DNA of 64,000 nucleotides from a phage. The notes below the pieces were generated by a model, which saw nothing but the letters and a program-made list of their open reading frames with translations, searched no databases and was not told where the DNA came from. This document shows positions 407 to 10,272 of the stretch, in pieces. Position numbers and translations under genes: made by a program. The DNA lies in the NCBI GenBank assembly GCA_024672275.1, contig GCA_024672275.1_4536.1, one strand, 5' to 3'. The stretch's first letter is position 1. Each line of letters begins with the position of its first letter.

Positions 407-3282
407 TGTCAAGAGTTAAGCACAATATTGACAACACGTTTCAGTTGATTGAAGGGTTGGTTCAGTTTTTGGAAAGAAATACTGGTCTTACCATAGATCC
501 TACGGTTCAGCACTACATTATCAACCCACAAAACGTATTGGCGAACAACAGACACTTTATTAACTGGACAGCGCAGGAAGGGCAACCAAACGGTGACGCT
601 ACTACCGAAGGTCAATCTGTGCTTATCACTGGTTTTGCTTATGCATATTTGGCTACAGGAGATAAAAAATATCTTGAATCTGCCGAGAAGTATTGGCAAG
701 CCTATATAGATCACTTCTTCGGGGGCCAACCTATTCCTGATCCTCCAGCTAAGTATCGTCCCAACTGGATCATCAATGGTAAAGAACCACGTTTAGCACA
801 CTACCCTCTCACAGATGATGGGTATCCTACGCACGGTGGGTTCAAAGGTAGCATGATGACTTGGATTAACGGAAGGACTGTTATTCCTAAAGGTGCGCCA
901 CATTGGGGAGAATACTTAGATAAAGCTTGGTTTGCTTTCAATGGTAATCTTGGTTGGAACTCTGTTAACGCAACAGTGTATGCAACTAACCCAGATGGTT
1001 CAACCAACTGGAAAGAATATGGAGATCAGTGGGACGTTGAATGGATTATAGATCGTCTAGGACGTAAAGTTGATTGGGATGGTAACATTTTATCTACAGG
1101 TCACAGGTTCGCAGAATATGGAACAGTGCAACTTAAAAATACTTCTGTGAACGGGGACTATAAATTCAACTACGCTACATGCAATCCTGTAGAACACGGT
1201 GGATATCTGCTTAAGCGTAATGAGATGTGGCATAACCGTCCTGTAAACGTTCCGGTAGAGTTAGGTTATCAAGACAATGCTTCCGATGCTGAAACGTGGT
1301 GGTGTGATGCAAACTACTTGATGTATCAGATCACAGGAGAGAGAAAATACTGGCTTTGCTGGCAATCTTCTTTATTGTTGTGTCAAGACTACTCAAACAT
1401 CGATATGTTTGATAAATTCTTCCGTAGATCTACGACAGCAATAATTCCTTTTACAGATGGTATCTCGTATGATTACTCATACCCATCTACAGCAATACCT
1501 AAATATTCTCGTGACGAGTTAGGATACACAGTAATTCGCCAAGATGTTGCAGCACAAACAACTCTAGAACAACAGGCAGTTTGGTTCAGAGTGGATCAGA
1601 ATTCAAAACTGCGTATTGAGTTTCAAGGCGTAGATGATGCAGGGGAAGGTGTTCTTTTCCGTCCAGAGTTAGAATTAAGCAAGACTAAGAGTGAAACAGA
1701 CACAGTGACATATCGTTGTGGCTTACCTCTTGGTGCAGCTAATATGACTAAGATGGATATACCTTTATCTAGTTTTATGCGCACCGAACCTCCTGGAGGT
1801 GGTGTATATATTATTGCTGAACCCAGAATTATTGTTGACTGGGGAAGCAATACTGTGATACAATATAAATATGCAACTGGTATTGCTGGGACAAATAGTG
1901 ATCAGATAGTTTCTGCTAATATGGATTCAGATGGTGGTTTTACTGTTGGGTTTTGGTTAACACCAACTAAAACAGCCAATTTAAAATCTATTACATATCG
2001 TTCATACGCAGATGATTTTAACATCACTATTACGGATTCCGCAGGTTGGAGATGGTGGGCCATGTTAGAAAAAACAAATTCTGCATGGGTTACTAAAGCT
2101 TTAAGTCCTGCTGATTTCAAATTAAGCACTTGGCAACCCAATCATAACGACACAGAGACAAAACCTTCGTCAATAAACCTGACTGCTGTTGATCAGATCA
2201 ACATTGCATTGGATTCTGAACCTGCAAATGGCTTGACAGGGGCAATCGATTTTTATTGTGTTAACGATATCCCATCTTTGTATTCTTCAGCCGCTGGTGA
2301 TGATTACACAATGTATTTCAGGGTTACAGTTTCATCTGAAAATCCTTATACAGCAAAACTTGGAGATTGTACAATACTGGACTATAAACTTGACAGTTTG
2401 AATTATACTCCAGGAATCATTCCATTTTCCAATATTAGTGATCCTAACACAGCATTATATGACGGTTGGCGTGGTATTCCTTACCCAGGTTATCAATACC
2501 CATCCTTATATTGTTTTAAAGGGAGAGATATTGACTGGGTTCGTATGAACAACAGTATAGACTTTTTATATGATTCACAAATGTGGTTTTATAATAAGTT
2601 TGCCCCTGTAATGCCTGGGCCAATGGCACAAGCTTATGTTTGGGATCGTTGGGATGCTCATAAATATGGAAACAAAAATGAGTTCACAATGTATCATTGG
2701 AACGATAAAGCTTGGGATGGTTATGAAGCACGAGCATTCTTCTGTGCGTGTCATACGGTATACGAACTAAAGCGACGAGGAGCCGAAGTTCCTGAAAAAC
2801 TTTTAACAGTTTGTAAAAACTGGATCAACTACCTGAAGTGGTTCCAAGATAACAACGAAGGAAGAACACCAACAATATTTTATCCCAACGGAGAAGTGGC
2901 TGCGCCTGTAGATGACTTTACAAGTCACATGTCTGCGCTCTTTATGGCGGGATGTGCTATAATGGGGATGGCTGGATATGATTCAGAAATTCCTAACATT
3001 AAAATAGTAGCAGACCGCTGTTTTGAACTTATTCAGGAAAACTATATTGTTCTTGGTCCTAATCACGTTATGAATGGTTGTTGGAGTGCTGCTCCTAGAC
3101 CAGACAGTGATAACGGAGTCTTCTTTGGCTTCCACGCTGGAGAGTTGTTACGTGGTTTTGGGTTGTATGCTTTATACAAAAAACTTAATCCCCAAAATGC
3201 ATTACCTGTTTTGGATTCGAGCAATATTCCTGCACTTACTGTTTTGACAATGGCAAACATTAGTGTGGACGTTACCGAGTAA
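406..3282 (+). CDS. large tail/baseplate structural protein (958 aa)
   Basis: Long ORF with ATGA overlap to the upstream ORF; W/Y/N/D-rich, no enzymatic motif recognised; position in tail module. Confidence 0.45.
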   Translation: MSRVKHNIDNTFQLIEGLVQFLERNTGLTIDPTVQHYIINPQNVLANNRHFINWTAQEGQPNGDATTEGQSVLITGFAYAYLATGDKKYLESAEKYWQAYIDHFFGGQPIPDPPAKYRPNWIINGKEPRLAHYPLTDDGYPTHGGFKGSMMTWINGRTVIPKGAPHWGEYLDKAWFAFNGNLGWNSVNATVYATNPDGSTNWKEYGDQWDVEWIIDRLGRKVDWDGNILSTGHRFAEYGTVQLKNTSVNGDYKFNYATCNPVEHGGYLLKRNEMWHNRPVNVPVELGYQDNASDAETWWCDANYLMYQITGERKYWLCWQSSLLLCQDYSNIDMFDKFFRRSTTAIIPFTDGISYDYSYPSTAIPKYSRDELGYTVIRQDVAAQTTLEQQAVWFRVDQNSKLRIEFQGVDDAGEGVLFRPELELSKTKSETDTVTYRCGLPLGAANMTKMDIPLSSFMRTEPPGGGVYIIAEPRIIVDWGSNTVIQYKYATGIAGTNSDQIVSANMDSDGGFTVGFWLTPTKTANLKSITYRSYADDFNITITDSAGWRWWAMLEKTNSAWVTKALSPADFKLSTWQPNHNDTETKPSSINLTAVDQINIALDSEPANGLTGAIDFYCVNDIPSLYSSAAGDDYTMYFRVTVSSENPYTAKLGDCTILDYKLDSLNYTPGIIPFSNISDPNTALYDGWRGIPYPGYQYPSLYCFKGRDIDWVRMNNSIDFLYDSQMWFYNKFAPVMPGPMAQAYVWDRWDAHKYGNKNEFTMYHWNDKAWDGYEARAFFCACHTVYELKRRGAEVPEKLLTVCKNWINYLKWFQDNNEGRTPTIFYPNGEVAAPVDDFTSHMSALFMAGCAIMGMAGYDSEIPNIKIVADRCFELIQENYIVLGPNHVMNGCWSAAPRPDSDNGVFFGFHAGELLRGFGLYALYKKLNPQNALPVLDSSNIPALTVLTMANISVDVTE

Positions 3283-3290
3283 GGGGTAAA

Positions 3291-5444
3291 ATGAAACAAG
3301 CTATATTTACTGTCACGCGAGACAAGAGAGTAAATGCGAGTTCATTTAACTACACGACTGTTGACGGAACAGCAGTCGCTGGTAGAGATTATATTGCAAA
3401 ATCGGGAACACTTGTGTTCCCTGATGATGCTGATTCTGCTACTATTGTGGTTGAAGTATTTGAACGACCAAAGAACTCAATAGATCTTAACTTCTCCCTC
3501 CAAGTTTCAGGGATTAGTCAAAATAACATGATGGTTGAAACAACCATCAATTGTATTATAACTACTATCCAAGAAAATACTACTCCAATAACTTGGACTA
3601 CAAAAGACGTTAAAATGTTCTCTCCTATGTATTGGACAATAGATTCTCAAGCAACGGAAAGTTGTTCTATTGTATCTCATGGAGACTCTTTTACTGCAAG
3701 ATTTGTAAACAGAACAACAGCAGGTTTGGCAGGGGTTATCTGGAGCACAGTTGACAAATATGACCATAAAGGTGTTGGGTATTTGCCTCACACAGATTTA
3801 AGTTCAGAGAAACTTTGGTTTAAAATGGAAATTAGTCAAAACATGCCAGGTTTTAAAGAAGAACCTTTGGTGCCGACTTTGACTGTAACTCTCCTGGATA
3901 AAAGTGTTCATTATGTCAGTTTAGGATTCTACGCTTCAGATATTTCAGAAGATGGTAAAACAGCCACAATAAAGTTAGATTTTAGTAATATCTTTTCTGG
4001 CCCTAATAATGATATTCCTTTGGATATGAGTGCTGTAGATAATATTTTCTTCTCTTTGATTACAGCAAGGTATGAAAAAATAGAAGAGGTTGTACCTATT
4101 GACAGTCAAGAGGCTTGGTTTACTTTCACTCTTCTTGAACCTACTTCTGGTTACAGTATGATGAAAGTCAGCAACCTTGTCCAGCCTGAACATGATATTC
4201 GCATGTGCACATCTTATGATGATATGTATAACCTGACTCCAGAGAGAGTTATTTATAATACATATGCACTAGGTTATCGTGGAATGATTAACCATTACAA
4301 CGGAATGTCTCACTATTATGAGTTCTCATGGAACGGAACATCTTGGGCTTTAAATAGATCTGTTTTCCTGAATCCGGCTACAGAAGCTTGGCTTAACAGT
4401 TTCCATTCTATAGCTAATGAAAATGGCTACACAATAATGAACTCTTTGAGTTTTGAGTTGATGAGCACAGTTTGTCCTGTTGAATGGGTCCAGCATGATT
4501 GGAACGATGCTCTTGCAGCAACAGGGTATAAGCCTCCTAGTTACGTGTTGTCTCCAACTATTGACGAAGGCATGGAATATTTGCAAAATGTTATTAACAA
4601 AATAGCATCTATTTCTCAAGCTAATAACATTCCAGTCGTCATTCAAATTGGTGAACCTTGGTGGTGGTATAATACAGCAAGTAAAATGCCTTGCATATAC
4701 GATTACACTACCAAACTGGCATTCAACACAGAAACTGGCTTATTTGCACAAGATGCAGGAACAATAGATAATTATAAAACAGGAACGCCGTTTGACGAAT
4801 ACTATGCATTTTTGTCTCGTAAACTGGGGTTAAGAGTTACAAAGTTTGCAACAGACACCAGAGCAACTTATCCTGGAGCTAAAGTAACATTGCTTCCGTT
4901 CTTACCGTCAATTATTGGCAACGGTTTGATGGAGAAAGTTAACTTTCCGTCTGATTACTACATTCCTGAAGCTTTTGATTTTTACTGTTCAGAGTGTTAT
5001 GACTGGCTTCTGGAAGGTAAGATGATGAAAGCATTTGATGCAATTACCATACCACATGAAAAATTAGGTTTTGAATATTCTGATATTCACTATCTTTCAG
5101 GTTTTGTTCCAGATGCTACTCTTGCGCCTTTGTATGGCTTCGATCCTGAATCAAACTACCGCACGTATCTTTGGAAAATGATTATAGGTAATATAGTGTT
5201 GAACGCCAACAAGTTTAACGGACTTACACAATATATATGGGCCTATCCTCAAATAATGCACGATTCCATTACGGTAGTTAACTCTCAATCCCAAGTTTTC
5301 TATATGGGTAATGTGCCTTTGAATTGCTATTTGCAAGATATCACTCTTAAACAAGCAAATGTTGAGATTGCTACCATAAGTGGAATTACATTAGCTACTA
5401 AATCTGGAGAAGATTTAGTAACAACACAAAAATTTTATATATAG
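3291..5444 (+). CDS. tail structural protein, putative fibre or baseplate component (717 aa)
   Basis: SD AAGGGG upstream of ATG; long ORF in tail-gene series; no catalytic motif recognised. Confidence 0.45.
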   Translation: MKQAIFTVTRDKRVNASSFNYTTVDGTAVAGRDYIAKSGTLVFPDDADSATIVVEVFERPKNSIDLNFSLQVSGISQNNMMVETTINCIITTIQENTTPITWTTKDVKMFSPMYWTIDSQATESCSIVSHGDSFTARFVNRTTAGLAGVIWSTVDKYDHKGVGYLPHTDLSSEKLWFKMEISQNMPGFKEEPLVPTLTVTLLDKSVHYVSLGFYASDISEDGKTATIKLDFSNIFSGPNNDIPLDMSAVDNIFFSLITARYEKIEEVVPIDSQEAWFTFTLLEPTSGYSMMKVSNLVQPEHDIRMCTSYDDMYNLTPERVIYNTYALGYRGMINHYNGMSHYYEFSWNGTSWALNRSVFLNPATEAWLNSFHSIANENGYTIMNSLSFELMSTVCPVEWVQHDWNDALAATGYKPPSYVLSPTIDEGMEYLQNVINKIASISQANNIPVVIQIGEPWWWYNTASKMPCIYDYTTKLAFNTETGLFAQDAGTIDNYKTGTPFDEYYAFLSRKLGLRVTKFATDTRATYPGAKVTLLPFLPSIIGNGLMEKVNFPSDYYIPEAFDFYCSECYDWLLEGKMMKAFDAITIPHEKLGFEYSDIHYLSGFVPDATLAPLYGFDPESNYRTYLWKMIIGNIVLNANKFNGLTQYIWAYPQIMHDSITVVNSQSQVFYMGNVPLNCYLQDITLKQANVEIATISGITLATKSGEDLVTTQKFYI

Positions 5445-5452
5445 GAGTAAAA

Positions 5453-6757
5453 ATGTCAACTACAATTACTAATTTACCAGAAACATCAAAAGTTAATGGT
5501 TCTGATTACCTGGTTTTAGACCAATCTGATAAGACTGTTAAAAGCACAGTTTCCAACTTTCTTACTGACACTGGGGTGGTTTTAGCCACCCAGTTGAAAG
5601 ATACAGATGGAGCAGATTTAATACAATCCTCAAATGGTAATACTGTTCAGGAAGAGTTGAATAACAATCTTCTTAATAATCGTGAACAGTGGCGTCGTAG
5701 TCTTGCTGAGGCAGGGTTAACCCTTGTCAACGGTAGCTTTGAAGAAGGGGCTACAGTAAACAATAAGACGGATGCTGTTTGGCATATTGCTGGTGGGCAG
5801 TGCTATACGTGGGATGGTGCTTTCCCTAAAGCTGTTCCCTCTGACTCAACCACTACATCAACCGGTGGTGTTGGAACAGGTGCATGGGTTAGTGTTGGTG
5901 ATGCATCTTTGCGTACTGATTTATCTTCATCTGATGGTGCTGGGCTTATTGGTGTTAGCTCTGGAGGGACAGTACAAGGCTCCCTCTCCGACATTAAGAA
6001 CTTAATTAAGCACGCGCAGCCGCTTTCTGACAGACGCATCGTAGCTATTGCTCACCGTGGATATTCAGAGACGTATTTAGAGCAAACACTGATGGCTTAC
6101 AGTCAATGTAATGCTGATGTATTAGAAGTCGATATGCAAACTACATCAGATGGGTATGCTGTGTGCTTCCATGACAATGACTTGTCCCCTGCTACCGTAG
6201 GAGGTTCTGGGGCGGTAAAAGATAACACATACTCCACCGTTTCCGCATTACGTTTTACAAGAGCCGTCGGTACAAGATACGCAGACATGGCGGGCATACC
6301 GACATTGGGGTCAGTCTGCCGGATTGCTATGCGACGCGGTAAAATGCTTCACGCAGAAATAAAAGGCTACAGAACGTTAGAAGATTGCGCTCTTTACTCG
6401 AGCATAGTCAACCAATACGGCTTGAGTCCATACACCACATTTTCATGCTTCGACTTCGCTCCGTTGGCATACACCCACAACATAAATCCGCGTATTACCT
6501 ACGCACTAGAGTTAAACTCTTACGATAGTAGCATGGACGCTAACATAGCAGAGCTTGCGTCCTGGGGCGGGTCTGTGTTGTCTATAAACAAAAACATATT
6601 GAGCACTATAGGCAATAAGAAGCTTCGCGAGTGGGAGGCTATGGGGCTTACTTTGGCCGCATGGACGATATACACGGCAGAACAAATGCAGACCGTTGCC
6701 AATTACGGCATACGTCTTGTATATCTGGATAAAGATTTTTACAACATTATAGGTTAA
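5453..6757 (+). CDS. tail fibre protein with C-terminal glycerophosphodiester phosphodiesterase (GDPD) domain
   Basis: SD AGGAG; N-terminal fibre-anchor-like segment; C-terminal half has GDPD signature IAHRGYSETYLEQTLMAY...CNADVLEVDMQTTSDGYAVCFHDND. Confidence 0.7.
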   Translation: MSTTITNLPETSKVNGSDYLVLDQSDKTVKSTVSNFLTDTGVVLATQLKDTDGADLIQSSNGNTVQEELNNNLLNNREQWRRSLAEAGLTLVNGSFEEGATVNNKTDAVWHIAGGQCYTWDGAFPKAVPSDSTTTSTGGVGTGAWVSVGDASLRTDLSSSDGAGLIGVSSGGTVQGSLSDIKNLIKHAQPLSDRRIVAIAHRGYSETYLEQTLMAYSQCNADVLEVDMQTTSDGYAVCFHDNDLSPATVGGSGAVKDNTYSTVSALRFTRAVGTRYADMAGIPTLGSVCRIAMRRGKMLHAEIKGYRTLEDCALYSSIVNQYGLSPYTTFSCFDFAPLAYTHNINPRITYALELNSYDSSMDANIAELASWGGSVLSINKNILSTIGNKKLREWEAMGLTLAAWTIYTAEQMQTVANYGIRLVYLDKDFYNIIG

Positions 6758-6762
6758 CTGAT

Positions 6763-7530
6763 ATGAAGCAAATTATTAACTCCCGCAATTTCTCACACTG
6801 GGACTTTTTAAACACTGGTTCTGGTACAACGATGGTTGTGCCGGATGGTAGGTTACGTATGCAAAACCCTGATGACTCAAGCAGAGCAATGGTGATTCGC
6901 GATATCATGCTAATGCCTGGGGATACTGTGACCATCTATGGTATTGGAAGGACAACGTCGTTATCATCAGGCGCATTTATAATGGGGGTGGAGTACCCTG
7001 TTGGCAAACGCCTCGCTCAAGCTAACTTTATCCATAACGAAGACAGCTTACTTCTTAAATGTTCATGGAAATGTCCGGTAGACGCCGAACCGTGCACTGT
7101 TAGGCTTGCTTGCGGTCTTCCGAAATCAACAACAGCCATTGCGTATATGACAGACTTATGGATCGAGATTGACTCTGAAAACTTGAGTAGTCGACGCATC
7201 TTAATGGACGGTGTTCTTGAGATAAACGCTGGTGTGGCATCTATATCAACGGCATATGACCGTTGTAACGTAGGATCAATTAACGCGTCCAGCGTCAACG
7301 TTGACATTAGCCCAGCCGTCTTCACCGCAGGAGACCGTAGGCCTTTGGCGTTTGTCCAGCCGATTTTTAACACTAAAGAAACGTACTCATCCGGAGTTTT
7401 AATTCCTGTCGCTGACTTCACTAAGGCTGGGGTTCTAAACATTAGACTTCAAAACCCAGCTACAGGGAATCTCGTAGGTGTTACTGGAGCCAGTATTTAC
7501 AAAACAATAGCTTTCACTGTATATATTTGA
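6763..7530 (+). CDS. hypothetical structural protein (255 aa)
   Basis: ORF contiguous with the tail-gene series; no motif recognised. Confidence 0.35.
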   Translation: MKQIINSRNFSHWDFLNTGSGTTMVVPDGRLRMQNPDDSSRAMVIRDIMLMPGDTVTIYGIGRTTSLSSGAFIMGVEYPVGKRLAQANFIHNEDSLLLKCSWKCPVDAEPCTVRLACGLPKSTTAIAYMTDLWIEIDSENLSSRRILMDGVLEINAGVASISTAYDRCNVGSINASSVNVDISPAVFTAGDRRPLAFVQPIFNTKETYSSGVLIPVADFTKAGVLNIRLQNPATGNLVGVTGASIYKTIAFTVYI

Positions 7531-7543
7531 TTGCAATACACTA

Positions 7544-7566
7544 AAACCCCGCCGAAGCTGGGTTAG
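7544..7566 (-). terminator. putative intrinsic terminator (imperfect GC hairpin with TTCG loop, then T-run on minus strand)
   Basis: Minus-strand reading AACCCAGCTTCGGCGGGGTTTTAG immediately 3' of the ssb relic; stem has one mismatch. Confidence 0.3.
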
Positions 7567-7574
7567 TTCTATCA

Positions 7575-7620
7575 TCAGAACGGAATATCGTCGTCGAAAT
7601 CCATCGGAGGCTCATTACCT
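7575..7620 (-). pseudogene. orphan 3' fragment of an ssb gene (encodes ...NEPPMDFDDDIPF-stop)
   Basis: About 45-60 nt with roughly 85-90% identity to the 3' end of the full ssb at 20782..; upstream frame closed by TAA, so no full ORF; lies in the spacer between tail genes. Confidence 0.5.
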
Positions 7621-7769
7621 CCTTGTGGGCTTTATTGTTTGGGTGGCAGTTGCTGTTTATCAACCAAACCAACGCTGCGGTAGGTAGGGGGTTTTTGTTG
7701 TACCCCCTAACAAATTATTAGGTAGACTGTTTTAGTCAATTACGACTTAACTAACCTGAGAAAGTCCCT

Positions 7770-8060
7770 ATGGGAAATGAACCAGATAACGTAACTCTAG
7801 CCAGACTCGAGGAGAGACTGAGAAACATTTTCGAAAACCAAACCCGTGAATCAAGGGAAAGGGAGAAAATGGAAGAGTCTATTAAAAAACTAAGTGAGTC
7901 TATGGGCGACCTTAGTAACCGACTTAAACGGGTAGAGGAGAGCATCACTAAGTCTGAGCCTACTATTGAAGAGTTCATCACCATTAAACATAAAGTTGCT
8001 GGTGCTGGAATTTTTGGCAAGTTGGCATGGGCTGTAGCAGGTGCAAATGGGCTTCATTAA
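7770..8060 (+). CDS. hypothetical protein, coiled-coil with C-terminal hydrophobic helix (96 aa)
   Basis: ORF; charged heptad-like N-terminal part, C-terminal VAGAGIFGKLAWAVAGANGL segment. Confidence 0.4.
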   Translation: MGNEPDNVTLARLEERLRNIFENQTRESREREKMEESIKKLSESMGDLSNRLKRVEESITKSEPTIEEFITIKHKVAGAGIFGKLAWAVAGANGLH

Positions 8061-8191
8061 GGTTCACACAAGCTATGTCCTGCAAGCGCATGTCATCGCC
8101 ATGTGATAAAATGATGAAAACATATCGTAGCAGGGTTAATCTTGTCTTTAGTTACTATCGTACTAACTCAAAGTGTTGTCACTACCACTGC

Positions 8192-8213
8192 AAGCCCCTC
8201 CAAAGAGGGGCTT
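8192..8213 (+). other. perfect 9-bp stem-loop AAGCCCCTC-CAAA-GAGGGGCTT in an untranslated spacer
   Basis: Palindrome read directly; sits in a ~177-nt non-coding gap inside the tail operon; no clear T-tract. Confidence 0.35.
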
Positions 8214-8237
8214 ACTTAGAAAAACAAAGAGGTTGTT

Positions 8238-8546
8238 ATGAACGAAATGTTCTCCCAAGGTGGTAAAGGTTCAACCGGAATCTTAACCAATAAACAAGCA
8301 GTAGCCCGTCACTTTGGAGTTAAACAATCTGAGGTTGTTTACTTCTCAATTGGTGTGGATTTGGGTGGGTATAAGGTTATCTATGACAAGGAGACGCAAA
8401 GGGCGTATTCCCTACCTGCTGATATTGCCCCAGGTACTACTGCCATTAGTCTTAGTGCTGCTGTACTTGTGCATTCAGCGGGTTCTGTAGACCTTGGGGA
8501 ATTAGCTATATCTTGTGATTTAAAAAGTAATGAGAACGCACTATGA
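8238..8546 (+). CDS. hypothetical protein (102 aa)
   Basis: ORF with SD GAGGT upstream; no motif recognised. Confidence 0.4.
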   Translation: MNEMFSQGGKGSTGILTNKQAVARHFGVKQSEVVYFSIGVDLGGYKVIYDKETQRAYSLPADIAPGTTAISLSAAVLVHSAGSVDLGELAISCDLKSNENAL

Positions 8547-8785
8547 GAAAATTTTTAATAGGTATGTTCTGTACATATCCCGATAATAAAGTCAGTTCTA
8601 CGAAAGTCTGGAACGCTGTAGGCATGTCGGTTATGACAGGCATGTTTATCTTTTTAGGAATAGAAAAAGAAATTCCTGAATGGATGGGTTGGGCTTTTGT
8701 TTTCATGATAACCCCTTCTCGCCTCATGAAAAATCTTATTGATTTACGTTGGGGCAGATCACAATCTACTAAAGAGGATGACTAA
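8543..8785 (+). CDS. small membrane protein (80 aa)
   Basis: ATGA overlap with upstream ORF; two or three hydrophobic segments (FLIGMFCTY, GMSVMTGMFIFLGI, WMGWAFVFMI). Confidence 0.4.
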   Translation: MRKFLIGMFCTYPDNKVSSTKVWNAVGMSVMTGMFIFLGIEKEIPEWMGWAFVFMITPSRLMKNLIDLRWGRSQSTKEDD

Positions 8786-10272
8786 TGGACGAATATGGTT
8801 TGACAGATGCGGGATTTGTAATCCCGACTTTTGACGATGTTCTAAACAATTATATGACAGCAGTAAAAAACACATTTGGTGCAGATGCAGCCACTTCGGA
8901 AGATACTGTGATCGGACAACTGTTTAGAATAATTGCATACACAGATTACACATTGTGGGAAGGTATGCAAGGTGTTTATAATACTCAAACACTGGATGGT
9001 GCAGAAGGTATTTATCTTGATGAAATCTTTTCTAAACGCGGTTTCTATCGAGCAGGTGCAGCAGCAAGTACAGGTTATGCATATGTTAAGAGTAATAACA
9101 AAGCAGCTTGGACTTATGAGCTAGGCACGGATATTTACTTCAACTCTGACAGTGATATGAACTACTATGTTAGCACACCAACTATGTTGAATGCTAAGAT
9201 TGCAGCTTATCAAATCACTCGTGCTAATGCAACTGCTACAGGTGTTCCAAATATTACTTTTTATGCACAAAGTGCGGTGGATGGAGGACTAAACAGTAAA
9301 ACACTTGCACCTGGTTCTTCTACATTTATAACCGATCTTGAAACTTTTATCAAGGCAAACTTAACAGAGGCTGATCGTAGTCTTGTATTTTCTGATTCTG
9401 GTAACTTGTCAATTGGTTTTACTTCTTTAACCAGTGATACTCCAGTGGGACTAGTAACTCCTATCAAATTTTATGCTAGTGTTCCAGTTGGAACAAAATG
9501 GAGTGAAATTCCGGTAGTTGCAGCAGAGAAAGGATACAATCCGGTGGGTGTGGAGTCTATTACAGGAATATCTTCTACCTTTACAGGTTATCTTGATAGT
9601 GGTAACTTCTATTCGTTTTCTCCTGGTCGAGATGTTGAGACAGATGCAGAATTCCGCTCTCGTTTCAATGACAACGTTGACGAAGCTAACGCAGGGACAC
9701 GAGCAGCTATTGTGAAAGCTCTGCTACTTACAGATGGTGTTACTAAGGTGAAGATTTATGATAACCCTACATTACATGATCAAGAACATGCTCCAGCTAT
9801 GACTTTCCAGACTATAGTTTATGGTGGCAGTGCAGAAGAAATTGCAAATGTTATCTATAAAACCAAACCAATCAACACTTTGACACACGGAACAACTAAC
9901 ATAACAGTTACAACAGAAGATGGAGGACAAGAAATTATTCGCTTCTCTCCTGGTGCTTCTGCTATGTATTCTGTAAAACTTGTTTATCAAACTGTCAACG
10001 GAACAACTTTAAGTGGAACAGAAAAACAAAACATCGTAGAAGCTTTACAAAACCTGCAAGCTTACTTTGAGTTAGGTTCTTCAGTAACGAACGATCAAAT
10101 CAAAGGTGTTATTTATGCAGCACTTGCTTTTGGACGCTTGACTTCTCTTCGTGTTTATGTTAAACTTAATACTGAGGATGACAGTAAATATACAGAGAAT
10201 AATATAGTTCCTGCTTATAATGTTGTCCCTTCTTTTGACCTTGATAACATTTCTTACGAGTATGGAGTGTAA
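8785..10272 (+). CDS. baseplate J-like protein (495 aa)
   Basis: N-terminus MDEYGLTDAGFVIPTFDDVLNNYMTAVKNTFGADA resembles the baseplate J / gp47 family N-terminal pattern; position in tail module. Confidence 0.55.
   Translation: MDEYGLTDAGFVIPTFDDVLNNYMTAVKNTFGADAATSEDTVIGQLFRIIAYTDYTLWEGMQGVYNTQTLDGAEGIYLDEIFSKRGFYRAGAAASTGYAYVKSNNKAAWTYELGTDIYFNSDSDMNYYVSTPTMLNAKIAAYQITRANATATGVPNITFYAQSAVDGGLNSKTLAPGSSTFITDLETFIKANLTEADRSLVFSDSGNLSIGFTSLTSDTPVGLVTPIKFYASVPVGTKWSEIPVVAAEKGYNPVGVESITGISSTFTGYLDSGNFYSFSPGRDVETDAEFRSRFNDNVDEANAGTRAAIVKALLLTDGVTKVKIYDNPTLHDQEHAPAMTFQTIVYGGSAEEIANVIYKTKPINTLTHGTTNITVTTEDGGQEIIRFSPGASAMYSVKLVYQTVNGTTLSGTEKQNIVEALQNLQAYFELGSSVTNDQIKGVIYAALAFGRLTSLRVYVKLNTEDDSKYTENNIVPAYNVVPSFDLDNISYEYGV

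Follow-up and report, generated by a model that had tools for sequence, protein, structure and literature searches.

We analyzed a window of 64,000 nucleotides (nt) of phage DNA (contig GCA_024672275.1_4536.1) from a phAPEC8-like myovirus (Stephanstirmvirinae, Phapecoctavirus type). Our subject is its tail-spike gene, the C-terminal half of which encodes a glycerophosphodiester phosphodiesterase (GDPD) domain, and the gene that directly follows it (Table 1). A variable block aside, positions 3000–9000 are 96–97% identical to Klebsiella phage ZCKP1, to Escherichia phages ukendt, Ro121c4YLVW and UP17, and to many others. The spike gene is flanked by a 'non-contractile tail sheath' gene (3291–5444) and a baseplate-wedge gene (8785–10272), and by synteny it corresponds to the genes annotated as tail spikes in ZCKP1 and UP17. 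An identical protein is deposited at NCBI as a Third Party Annotation (TPA) entry, 'hypothetical protein [Escherichia coli]'.

The Pfam matches of the spike are far beyond chance. In the N-terminal part, residues 92–150 match Tail_spike_N (PF18668; E = 1.1e-20, 73.9 bits versus a cut-off of 25), dozens of PHROGs tail-spike families match the first 180 residues, and in a PDB sequence search residues 75–190 match the N-domains of the tailspikes 8x8m, 9occ and 4oj5. Residues 1 to about 160 share 85–93% protein identity with the spikes of many Phapecoctavirus members. A reading made from the letters of the window alone (the sequence-only reading) had described the protein as a tail fiber with a fiber-like N-terminus; this N-terminus is indeed of the virion-attachment type, but 'tail spike' is the more accurate name. 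Further along the chain, residues 189–431 match phrog_16641 ('tail fiber protein'). The trimeric right-handed beta-helix body is not present in the spike, whose residues 190–434 are predicted to form an alpha/beta barrel, and the protein is 200–600 residues shorter than its relatives. As modeled, it works in the spike position, yet is not a beta-helix tailspike.

The barrel region matches Pfam GDPD (PF03009) across profile positions 1–240 of 244 (E = 6e-21, 76.1 bits versus a cut-off of 23.6). The NCBIfam equivalog models for UgpQ and GlpQ score far under their cut-offs (51 versus 264 bits), and the domain is therefore a member of the GDPD family and not an ortholog of GlpQ or UgpQ. In a phmmer search of the PDB, residues 190–427 align to T. 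tengcongensis 2PZ0, B. subtilis GlpQ 5T91 and S. aureus 2OOG, and also to the phage K/812 proteins 9F49, 9EUF and 9EUL. In the chain count of 2PZ0, the equivalents of H201, R202, E225, D227, H240, E302 and K304 are H17, R18, E44, D46, H59, E119 and K121. We take H17 and H59 to be the general acid/base His pair, R18 the phosphate-binding Arg, and E44, D46 and E119 the metal site, an assignment of catalytic roles in TtGDPD that reportedly comes from Shi et al. 2008. H201, R202, E225, D227, H240, D241 and E302 are unchanged across an 18-member family alignment. The same set (H, R, E, D, H, D, E) is invariant in 13 of 13 loci, where identity of the GDPD domain falls to 25–30%, and K304 is kept in 12 of these. 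Such invariance of the catalytic and metal-binding residues over 25–100% identity argues for retained chemistry. The single deviation from the standard signature is that the 'ENT' motif after HRG has changed its Asn to Gln (E210-Q211-T212) in all nine enterobacterial members, which keep the Glu and Thr; the distant phage members keep the Asn.

An AlphaFold2 model of the spike, computed on the family alignment, is of moderate confidence, with a mean predicted local distance difference test (pLDDT) score of 66.9; confidence is good at residues 70–140 (pLDDT 75–88) and 290–420, and poor at residues 1–64 and in parts of 200–280. When the model was compared with the PDB by Foldseek, the top 50 matches were dominated by GDPDs (E = 1e-13 to 1e-8, target-normalized template modeling (TM) score 0.6–0.76). 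The best was B. subtilis GlpQ 5T9B (E = 1.2e-13, TM 0.67–0.76 on target), and 9eul, the central spike of phage 812, and 9f5m, the C-terminal domain of phage K gp155, were also among the matches. The two computational checks proposed by the sequence-only reading, a hidden Markov model (HMM) search for GDPD and a structure prediction, thus agree with its assignment of the C-terminal half: the profile is covered almost in full, the moderately confident barrel superposes on solved GDPDs, and the His pair and metal ligands, on whose presence that reading depended, are all found and invariant. Its description of the signature as 'canonical' is right for the His pair, the Arg and the metal ligands, but not for the Asn of 'ENT'. 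From the alignment and the model we infer a catalytically competent, metal-dependent GDPD with a triosephosphate isomerase (TIM) barrel of the GlpQ/UgpQ type.

Nucleotide homology to the Phapecoctavirus relatives ends at 5905–5910, at about codon 152 and just after Tail_spike_N, and restarts at 7881 (ZCKP1) or 8049 (UP17), with none in between. The intervening tract has a GC content of 0.44–0.46 versus 0.394 for the window, and over 6049–7526, which spans both genes, it has 63.5% DNA identity to the corresponding genes of a Citrobacter prophage. The spike body of about 540–590 residues found in ZCKP1 and UP17 is absent here, having been replaced. The homology breakpoints and the foreign tract indicate that the phage kept its own virion anchor and swapped its spike body for foreign DNA; judged by homology and composition, 5911–7880 is horizontally acquired. 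One recombination tract covers both the GDPD part of the spike and the gene downstream.

The right junction at 7881 is spanned by an open reading frame (ORF) for a predicted coiled-coil protein of 96 residues (7770–8060, + strand; phrog_5211); its first ~110 nt come from the acquired tract, hence its N-terminus is unlike that of ZCKP1. A tblastn match to the spikes of UP17 and TSP7_1 that extends to residue 273 had suggested a second GDPD spike in Phapecoctavirus. This is a BLAST over-extension: pairwise BLASTP identity collapses past residue ~155, and by Pfam UP17 is without GDPD. At the same spike locus, Escherichia phage JLBYU50 (Justusliebigvirus) has a gene (3001–5574) encoding Tail_spike_N and a C-terminal NAGPA 'phosphodiester glycosidase' (PF09992, E = 5e-25), so that spikes of Stephanstirmvirinae bear two distinct modules directed at phosphodiesters; no gene like the one discussed next follows that of JLBYU50.

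The sequence-only reading took in the spike gene only. Its account of the enzyme is sound but incomplete, as a second gene of the same cassette, which we call the partner, lies just beyond the spike gene. Searches of Pfam, PHROGs and NCBIfam with the partner gave no match even at E 0.1, and so none to a Tfa, gp38 or carbohydrate-binding module (CBM) family. Its N-terminal domain is predicted to adopt a CBM-like beta-sandwich jelly-roll fold (CBM4/16/22/70-like), with structural matches that are 8–21% identical in sequence. The same fold recurs in the distal domains of spikes and fibers such as CBA120 TSP4, Kp7 gp52 and KP32gp38. On this prediction the partner resembles a CBM in fold only. An HMM search of 1.84 billion representative proteins with the partner profile returned 25 proteins at E ≤ 0.001, nearly all stand-alone and 250–278 residues long. 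The protein is labeled 'hypothetical' everywhere, and in the RefSeq record of phage DTL it is without annotation. Among close relatives, 75 of 255 partner sites are variable versus 29 of 245 in the GDPD domain, with three to four times more substitutions in the partner, a faster divergence than that of the enzyme and as expected for a specificity determinant. We looked in the partner for a variability hot-spot that could mark a binding site and found none, the changes being spread over both domains. A segment between the two domains, residues 138–151 (S-x-N-L-x-S-R-R-I-L-M-D-G-V), is invariant across the family and is a candidate interface or hinge.

When 5.8 billion clustered proteins were searched with the GDPD domain, a search that its word index limits, only 22 clusters came up at E ≤ 0.001. 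All are 360–440 residues long or fragments and come from E. coli, Citrobacter, Providencia and Proteus, and in them the GDPD sits behind Tail_spike_N or the P22-type head-binding domain PF09008. The databases name the prophage proteins only automatically, as 'glycerophosphodiester phosphodiesterase family protein'. A partner homolog stands directly after the GDPD gene, with a gap of 0–16 nt, in 13 of 13 complete loci, and in the retrieved loci it has 255–266 residues. Lambda-like prophages carry the cassette in Proteus vulgaris, in Citrobacter and in a metagenome. It is also found in an N4/G7C-like podovirus contig, a 91-kb phage contig, a P22-like prophage of Proteus mirabilis, a lytic siphovirus that encodes its own DNA polymerase, Proteus sp. 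FME41, and two T1-like phages, Escherichia phage DTL and Erwinia phage Snitter. It is thus spread across four or more tail types (N4/G7C-like, P22-like, lambda-like, T1-like and others), and every homolog retrieved is part of a tail module, with a virion-attachment domain in front of it. Two incomplete contigs also have the GDPD gene upstream of the partner, and one further contig ends upstream of the partner gene. Three distant partner relatives (P0037, P0040 and P0049) each lie directly 3' of the gene for a GDPD-domain tail protein; scans of viral contigs for the distant relatives P0037 and P0039 gave no match.

The two proteins also diverge together: across 78 pairs from 13 loci, GDPD and partner identities correlate with a Pearson r of 0.96, the pairs being non-independent and the p-value therefore not literal. 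The N-terminal adaptors do not follow this pattern, as in one locus (L012) with 93.5% identity in the GDPD, 79.6% in the partner and 33% in the adaptor. Because GDPD and partner co-diverge while the adaptors are unlinked, what is exchanged is the GDPD domain together with the partner, placed behind the recipient's own adaptor. GDPD and partner are an obligately adjacent, co-diverging gene pair.

This pair is rare among sequenced genomes. A search of 5,426 complete E. coli genomes gave no match to the cassette, and among 185,579 species-representative genomes it occurs in one (that of Proteus sp. FME41). None of 50,697 phage genomes has a record covering at least 80% of the spike protein. A related GDPD domain is present in 56 phage records, 53 of them without a Gram-negative host name (48 with Gram-positive genera, five 'Bacteriophage sp.'), and DTL and Snitter are the only deposited phages of Gram-negative bacteria that have one. 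The sequence-only reading was right to call GDPD an uncommon module for a receptor-binding protein.

Table 1. Features of the spike locus in the window, and genes next to the cassette in prophage loci (L numbers)
Feature	Coordinates	Strand	Basis or remark
Tail-spike gene, 434 aa	5453–6757	+	ATG 5453, TAA 6755–6757; uninterrupted ORF
Spike layout: lineage-specific anchor, Tail_spike_N, helical linker, GDPD barrel	5453–6757	+	
Shine-Dalgarno AGGAG, 5 nt before spike ATG	5443–5447	+	sequence read
Resident Phapecoctavirus spike part, residues 1–~152 (anchor and Tail_spike_N)	5453–5910	+	96–97% nt identity to UP17, ZCKP1
Tail_spike_N domain	5726–5902	+	PF18668
Horizontally acquired segment, ~2 kb: linker, GDPD, partner gene and 350 nt downstream	5911–7880	+	homology gap, GC
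GDPD catalytic domain, residues 201–426	6053–6730	+	Pfam, alignment to 2PZ0 and 5T91, Foldseek
Catalytic codons H201, R202, E225, D227	6053–6055, 6056–6058, 6125–6127, 6131–6133	+	
Catalytic codons H240, E302, K304	6170–6172, 6356–6358, 6362–6364	+	
Partner gene, 255 aa, begins 5 nt past spike stop	6763–7530	+	all-beta, two domains, family undescribed
Serotype-conversion genes GtrA/GtrB/Glucos_trans_II	L005 10030–12772; L006 3710–6452	opposite to cassette	
Acyl_transf_3 O-acetyltransferase	L007 10013–11050	opposite to cassette	
345-aa ORF	L018 5641–6678	opposite to cassette	matched to acyltransferase by size only

Elsewhere around the spike, the upstream gene (3291–5444, + strand) encodes 717 residues with Calx-beta, NCTSP_N and TIM-barrel_NCTSP domains ('non-contractile tail sheath protein', E = 5e-79). 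Its host is a contractile-tailed phage despite this name, and the labels given to it in relatives vary (capsid and scaffold, tail fibers, hypothetical). Downstream, an ORF of 102 residues (8238–8546, + strand) matches tail spikes only at their outermost N-terminal anchor (positions 327–419 of phrog_7992 and 1–94 of phrog_18484; E = 1e-61 to 1e-45). Phapecoctavirus keeps it (ZCKP1 gp113, 'tail protein'), and it is located beyond the replaced tract, which rules it out as recombination debris; it may act by itself as a spike anchor or adaptor. A promoter and terminator scan around the cassette gave nothing above the shuffled expectation, and there are no tRNA genes in the whole 64-kb window. GC skew turns from + to − near 20 kb and from − to + near 56 kb, which is consistent with switches in transcription direction between structural and other modules.

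Our favored explanation, which we hold to be reasonably probable, is that the protein is a virion phosphodiesterase spike that acts on glycerol-phosphate O or K antigens with the help of a lectin-like partner. The resident N-terminal anchor (residues 1–~152, including Tail_spike_N) would hold the spike on the baseplate, and the tip would be a GDPD enzyme in place of the usual beta-helix depolymerase, brought in by recombination within a mobile cassette of two genes (GDPD domain and 255-residue partner). Once incorporated into the virion, such a spike would bind, and by endo or exo cleavage hydrolyze, the glycerol-phosphate phosphodiester links of a teichoic-acid-like surface polysaccharide of the host. 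The candidate substrates are a glycerol-phosphate O-antigen (E. coli O28ab, O37, O100 or O130 type) or a K2-type capsule. Cleavage would let the virion attach, open a path to the outer membrane and detach from debris. The partner may associate with the GDPD barrel and supply or refine polysaccharide recognition, or may at least be needed for assembly of the tip, a role that can be likened to that of the lectin-like distal domains of classical tailspikes or of gp38-type adhesins. A stronger form of the proposal is an obligate heteromeric 'split' depolymerase: one subunit would be the phosphodiesterase, the other a separately encoded, fast-evolving lectin, and together they would recognize and cleave the teichoic-acid-like O/K antigens of Enterobacterales; we put this forward as a tentative possibility, with the odds somewhat against it.

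The genomic company of the cassette suggests what the target may be. The adaptors that carry it, Tail_spike_N and the P22 head-binding domain, are elsewhere joined to depolymerases of O or K antigens. In prophages the opposite strand after the cassette holds gtrA-gtrB-gtr(type) or an acyltransferase-3 gene; such genes are typical of O-antigen-specific temperate phages and so point to an O-antigen receptor. Polymers built from CDP-glycerol contain sn-glycerol-3-phosphate, the stereoisomer accepted by GlpQ-type enzymes. Suitable substrates exist in these hosts: glycerol-1-phosphate O-polysaccharides in E. coli O28ab, O37 and O100, and also O130 and O33, according to references given in PMC7685785; the teichoic-acid-like K2 capsule of E. 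coli, from a reference in PMC13171606; and a Morganella O-antigen with in-chain Gro-1-P (PMC10609480). A polysaccharide target, and specifically an O-antigen, is supported by the adaptor company, the serotype-conversion neighbors and these substrates taken together.

Several observations weigh against the favored explanation. The Asn of the canonical 'ENT' motif is Gln in the enterobacterial GDPD subfamily, and the stretches 203–219, 246–252 and 274–279 near the active site are modeled with low confidence, leaving the N-terminal third of the barrel ill-defined. A fusion of GDPD or spike with the partner was not found among the 1.84 billion representatives. The characterized GlpQ-type enzymes known to us are exo-acting or work on small diesters, so that an endo-depolymerase role is not assured. 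Finally, DTL, in which the cassette occurs in a distant form, was isolated on rough E. coli K-12, which implies that the cassette is dispensable without O-antigen or has another target.

The partner might be nothing more than an assembly or folding chaperone that the GDPD tip requires for folding or oligomerization, comparable to lambda Tfa or to helpers of the T4 gp57A/gp38 type, with no place in the mature virion or in receptor recognition. That a gene lies right after the fiber tip and is exchanged with it is the textbook signature of a tail-fiber chaperone, the adjacency and co-divergence within the cassette suit such a role equally well, and the lack of fused forms agrees with it. We nevertheless find a pure chaperone unlikely, since the predicted fold of the partner is the CBM/lectin-like beta-sandwich of spike and fiber distal domains and no known chaperone fold, similarity to the Tfa or gp38 families is seen in neither Pfam nor PHROGs, and the protein diverges three to four times faster than its enzyme, as a specificity determinant would. 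We are just as doubtful that the enzyme merely trims pendant or terminal glycerol phosphate from O-antigen, capsule or core, whether to modify a receptor in the manner of G7C gp63.1 or as an exo-acting enzyme like GlpQ. GlpQ, the closest solved enzyme, is said to remove terminal glycerol-3-phosphate units, and the small protein is predicted to lack an extended substrate groove of the beta-helix kind. Several enterobacterial O-antigens bear glycerol phosphate, according to references in PMC7685785. But O-antigens with in-chain Gro-1-P exist as well, and the computed data do not tell endo from exo cleavage.

Quite improbable, in our judgment, is a target among glycerophospholipid-type head groups of the cell surface (lysophospholipids, phosphatidylglycerol-linked enterobacterial common antigen (ECA), glycerophosphorylated glucans), cleavage of which would aid membrane penetration. 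The GDPD superfamily does include lysophospholipase-D-type enzymes, which appear among the weaker matches (7ym0, 8ghh), and growth of DTL on rough K-12 would be accommodated. The best matches, however, are soluble GlpQ/UgpQ-type enzymes and not lipid-directed ones; moreover, the spike has a peripheral, host-range-variable position behind adaptors that otherwise bear O/K-antigen depolymerases, it is paired with a CBM-like protein, and O-antigen-modifying genes flank the cassette in prophages. It is more improbable still, to the point that we give it very little weight, that the GDPD is an inactive binding module or that the ORF is a non-structural, auxiliary metabolic phosphodiesterase mislabeled as a spike. 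The change in 'ENT' could be taken as a sign of inactivity, and a phosphodiesterase in virion preparations of another E. coli siphophage was judged a contaminant (PMC6832132). Inactivity sits poorly with catalytic and metal-binding residues that are invariant throughout the family, and a non-structural role with the N-terminal 152 residues, which are the conserved Phapecoctavirus spike anchor, and with the placement of every homolog in a tail module behind a virion-attachment domain. The phosphodiesterase spike with a lectin-like partner remains our preferred reading.

At the level of the domain our result is unsurprising once Pfam is run, and virion GDPDs are already established or proposed in phages of Gram-positive bacteria. 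What is new is the conserved two-gene architecture, its spread over tail types and the class of teichoic-acid-like O/K-antigen depolymerases that it implies. In the literature we found no GDPD or phosphodiesterase tail spike or fiber of a Gram-negative phage, only Gram-positive cases or irrelevant uses of 'phosphodiesterase', and we found no paper describing the partner family. To our knowledge, the characterized tail-spike depolymerases of phages with Gram-negative hosts are glycosidases, lyases or esterases. Tail-spike depolymerases set which strains a phage infects, and they are under development both as enzymes against capsules and biofilms and as reagents for typing. If the favored explanation is true, the repertoire widens to phosphodiester-linked O/K antigens (E. 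coli O28ab, O37, O100, O130, K2), many antigens of Proteus, Providencia, Morganella and Citrobacter also come within reach, and a ready-made enzyme to degrade them is at hand. If the split depolymerase is true, it would be a previously unrecognized depolymerase class of Gram-negative phages and a plug-in unit shared among myo-, sipho- and podoviruses. The co-inherited partner from an undescribed family offers a concrete and testable example of a receptor-binding module in two components, and annotation pipelines overlook half of the pair. For phage engineering, the stretch from the breakpoint after Tail_spike_N through the end of the partner marks what should be transplanted jointly for specificity to be transferred.

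Phage-borne GDPDs have been described in Gram-positive settings. The baseplate glycerophosphodiesterase of Lactobacillus delbrueckii phage Ld17 hydrolyzes carbohydrate polymers of the cell surface (Cornelissen et al. 2016, J Biol Chem 291:16816, as cited in PMC7476776 and PMC6116005). It is likewise a virion GDPD, with detectable homology to the spike (23% identity, E = 3e-8), but it belongs to a Gram-positive host, a siphovirus baseplate/Tal setting and a cell-wall substrate of the (lipo)teichoic-acid type; in addition, tblastn found no partner homolog in Lactobacillus phages. In Staphylococcus phage 812, the GDPD of the central-spike petal is proposed to cleave teichoic acid (PMC13433997). 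The phage 812 and phage K gp155 proteins (9eul, 9euf, 9f49/9f5m) share with the spike the GDPD alpha/beta barrel, two conserved His residues and a myovirus tail. In these phages of a Gram-positive host the GDPD and a lectin-like knob belong to a single chain of ~840 residues in the central spike, which plugs the channel, whereas the window encodes its enzyme as part of a peripheral tail spike and the lectin-like module in a gene of its own. Tail lysins of enterococcal phages have been surveyed (PMC10194240).

The cellular enzymes GlpQ (5T91/5T9B), 2PZ0 and 2OTD are the best matches in sequence and fold and share with the spike the His pair, the Arg and a metal site of Glu, Asp and Glu. Wall teichoic acid is a substrate of GlpQ, according to a citation in PMC13433997. 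Enzymes of the GlpQ/UgpQ type differ from the spike in being free cellular or secreted scavengers without a virion adaptor, in their ~23% identity and in having ENT/EHT where the subfamily of the spike has EQT. Among modular spikes, CBA120 TSP1-4, G7C gp66/gp63.1, ZCKP1 gp111 and the UP17 spike likewise join a Tail_spike_N adaptor to a C-terminal module exchanged by recombination, and those of Phapecoctavirus share in addition the locus and an anchor that is 85–93% identical. G7C gp63.1 is a deacetylating esterase, an instance of non-glycosidase chemistry on such spikes. All of them have 630–1,040 residues and a trimeric beta-helix body, in contrast to the 434 residues, TIM barrel and separate partner of the window.

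DTL gp52 and the Snitter tail protein (Drexlerviridae; phrog_16641) also have a GDPD C-terminus (Pfam E = 3e-27 and 2e-39), and in both phages the ORF that comes next encodes a partner homolog. Profile–profile comparison (hhalign) identifies the partner homologs as full-length in DTL (97.4%) and Snitter (98.8%). These phages differ from the window in their siphovirus lateral-fiber adaptors and in sequence, with identities of only 25–31% in the GDPD and 22–25% in the partner. We found no functional study of the DTL or Snitter GDPD fibers in the literature. In the DTL RefSeq record (L019, NC_047893) the partner ORF of ~265 residues (4216–5010) lies inside an unannotated gap of 846 nt after the GDPD fiber gene; in Snitter (L020) the homolog (4243–5031) is annotated only as hypothetical, and the GDPD is likewise unrecognized in both annotations. 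Two-gene fiber tips have long been known in T4/T2 (gp37-gp38), lambda (Stf-Tfa) and Mu (S-U), where a distal receptor-binding part and the gene directly downstream are exchanged together. The cassette resembles these systems in the co-exchange of the downstream gene with the tip, and differs from them in a partner without sequence or fold similarity to Tfa or gp38 and in an upstream tip that is an enzyme rather than a fiber tip.

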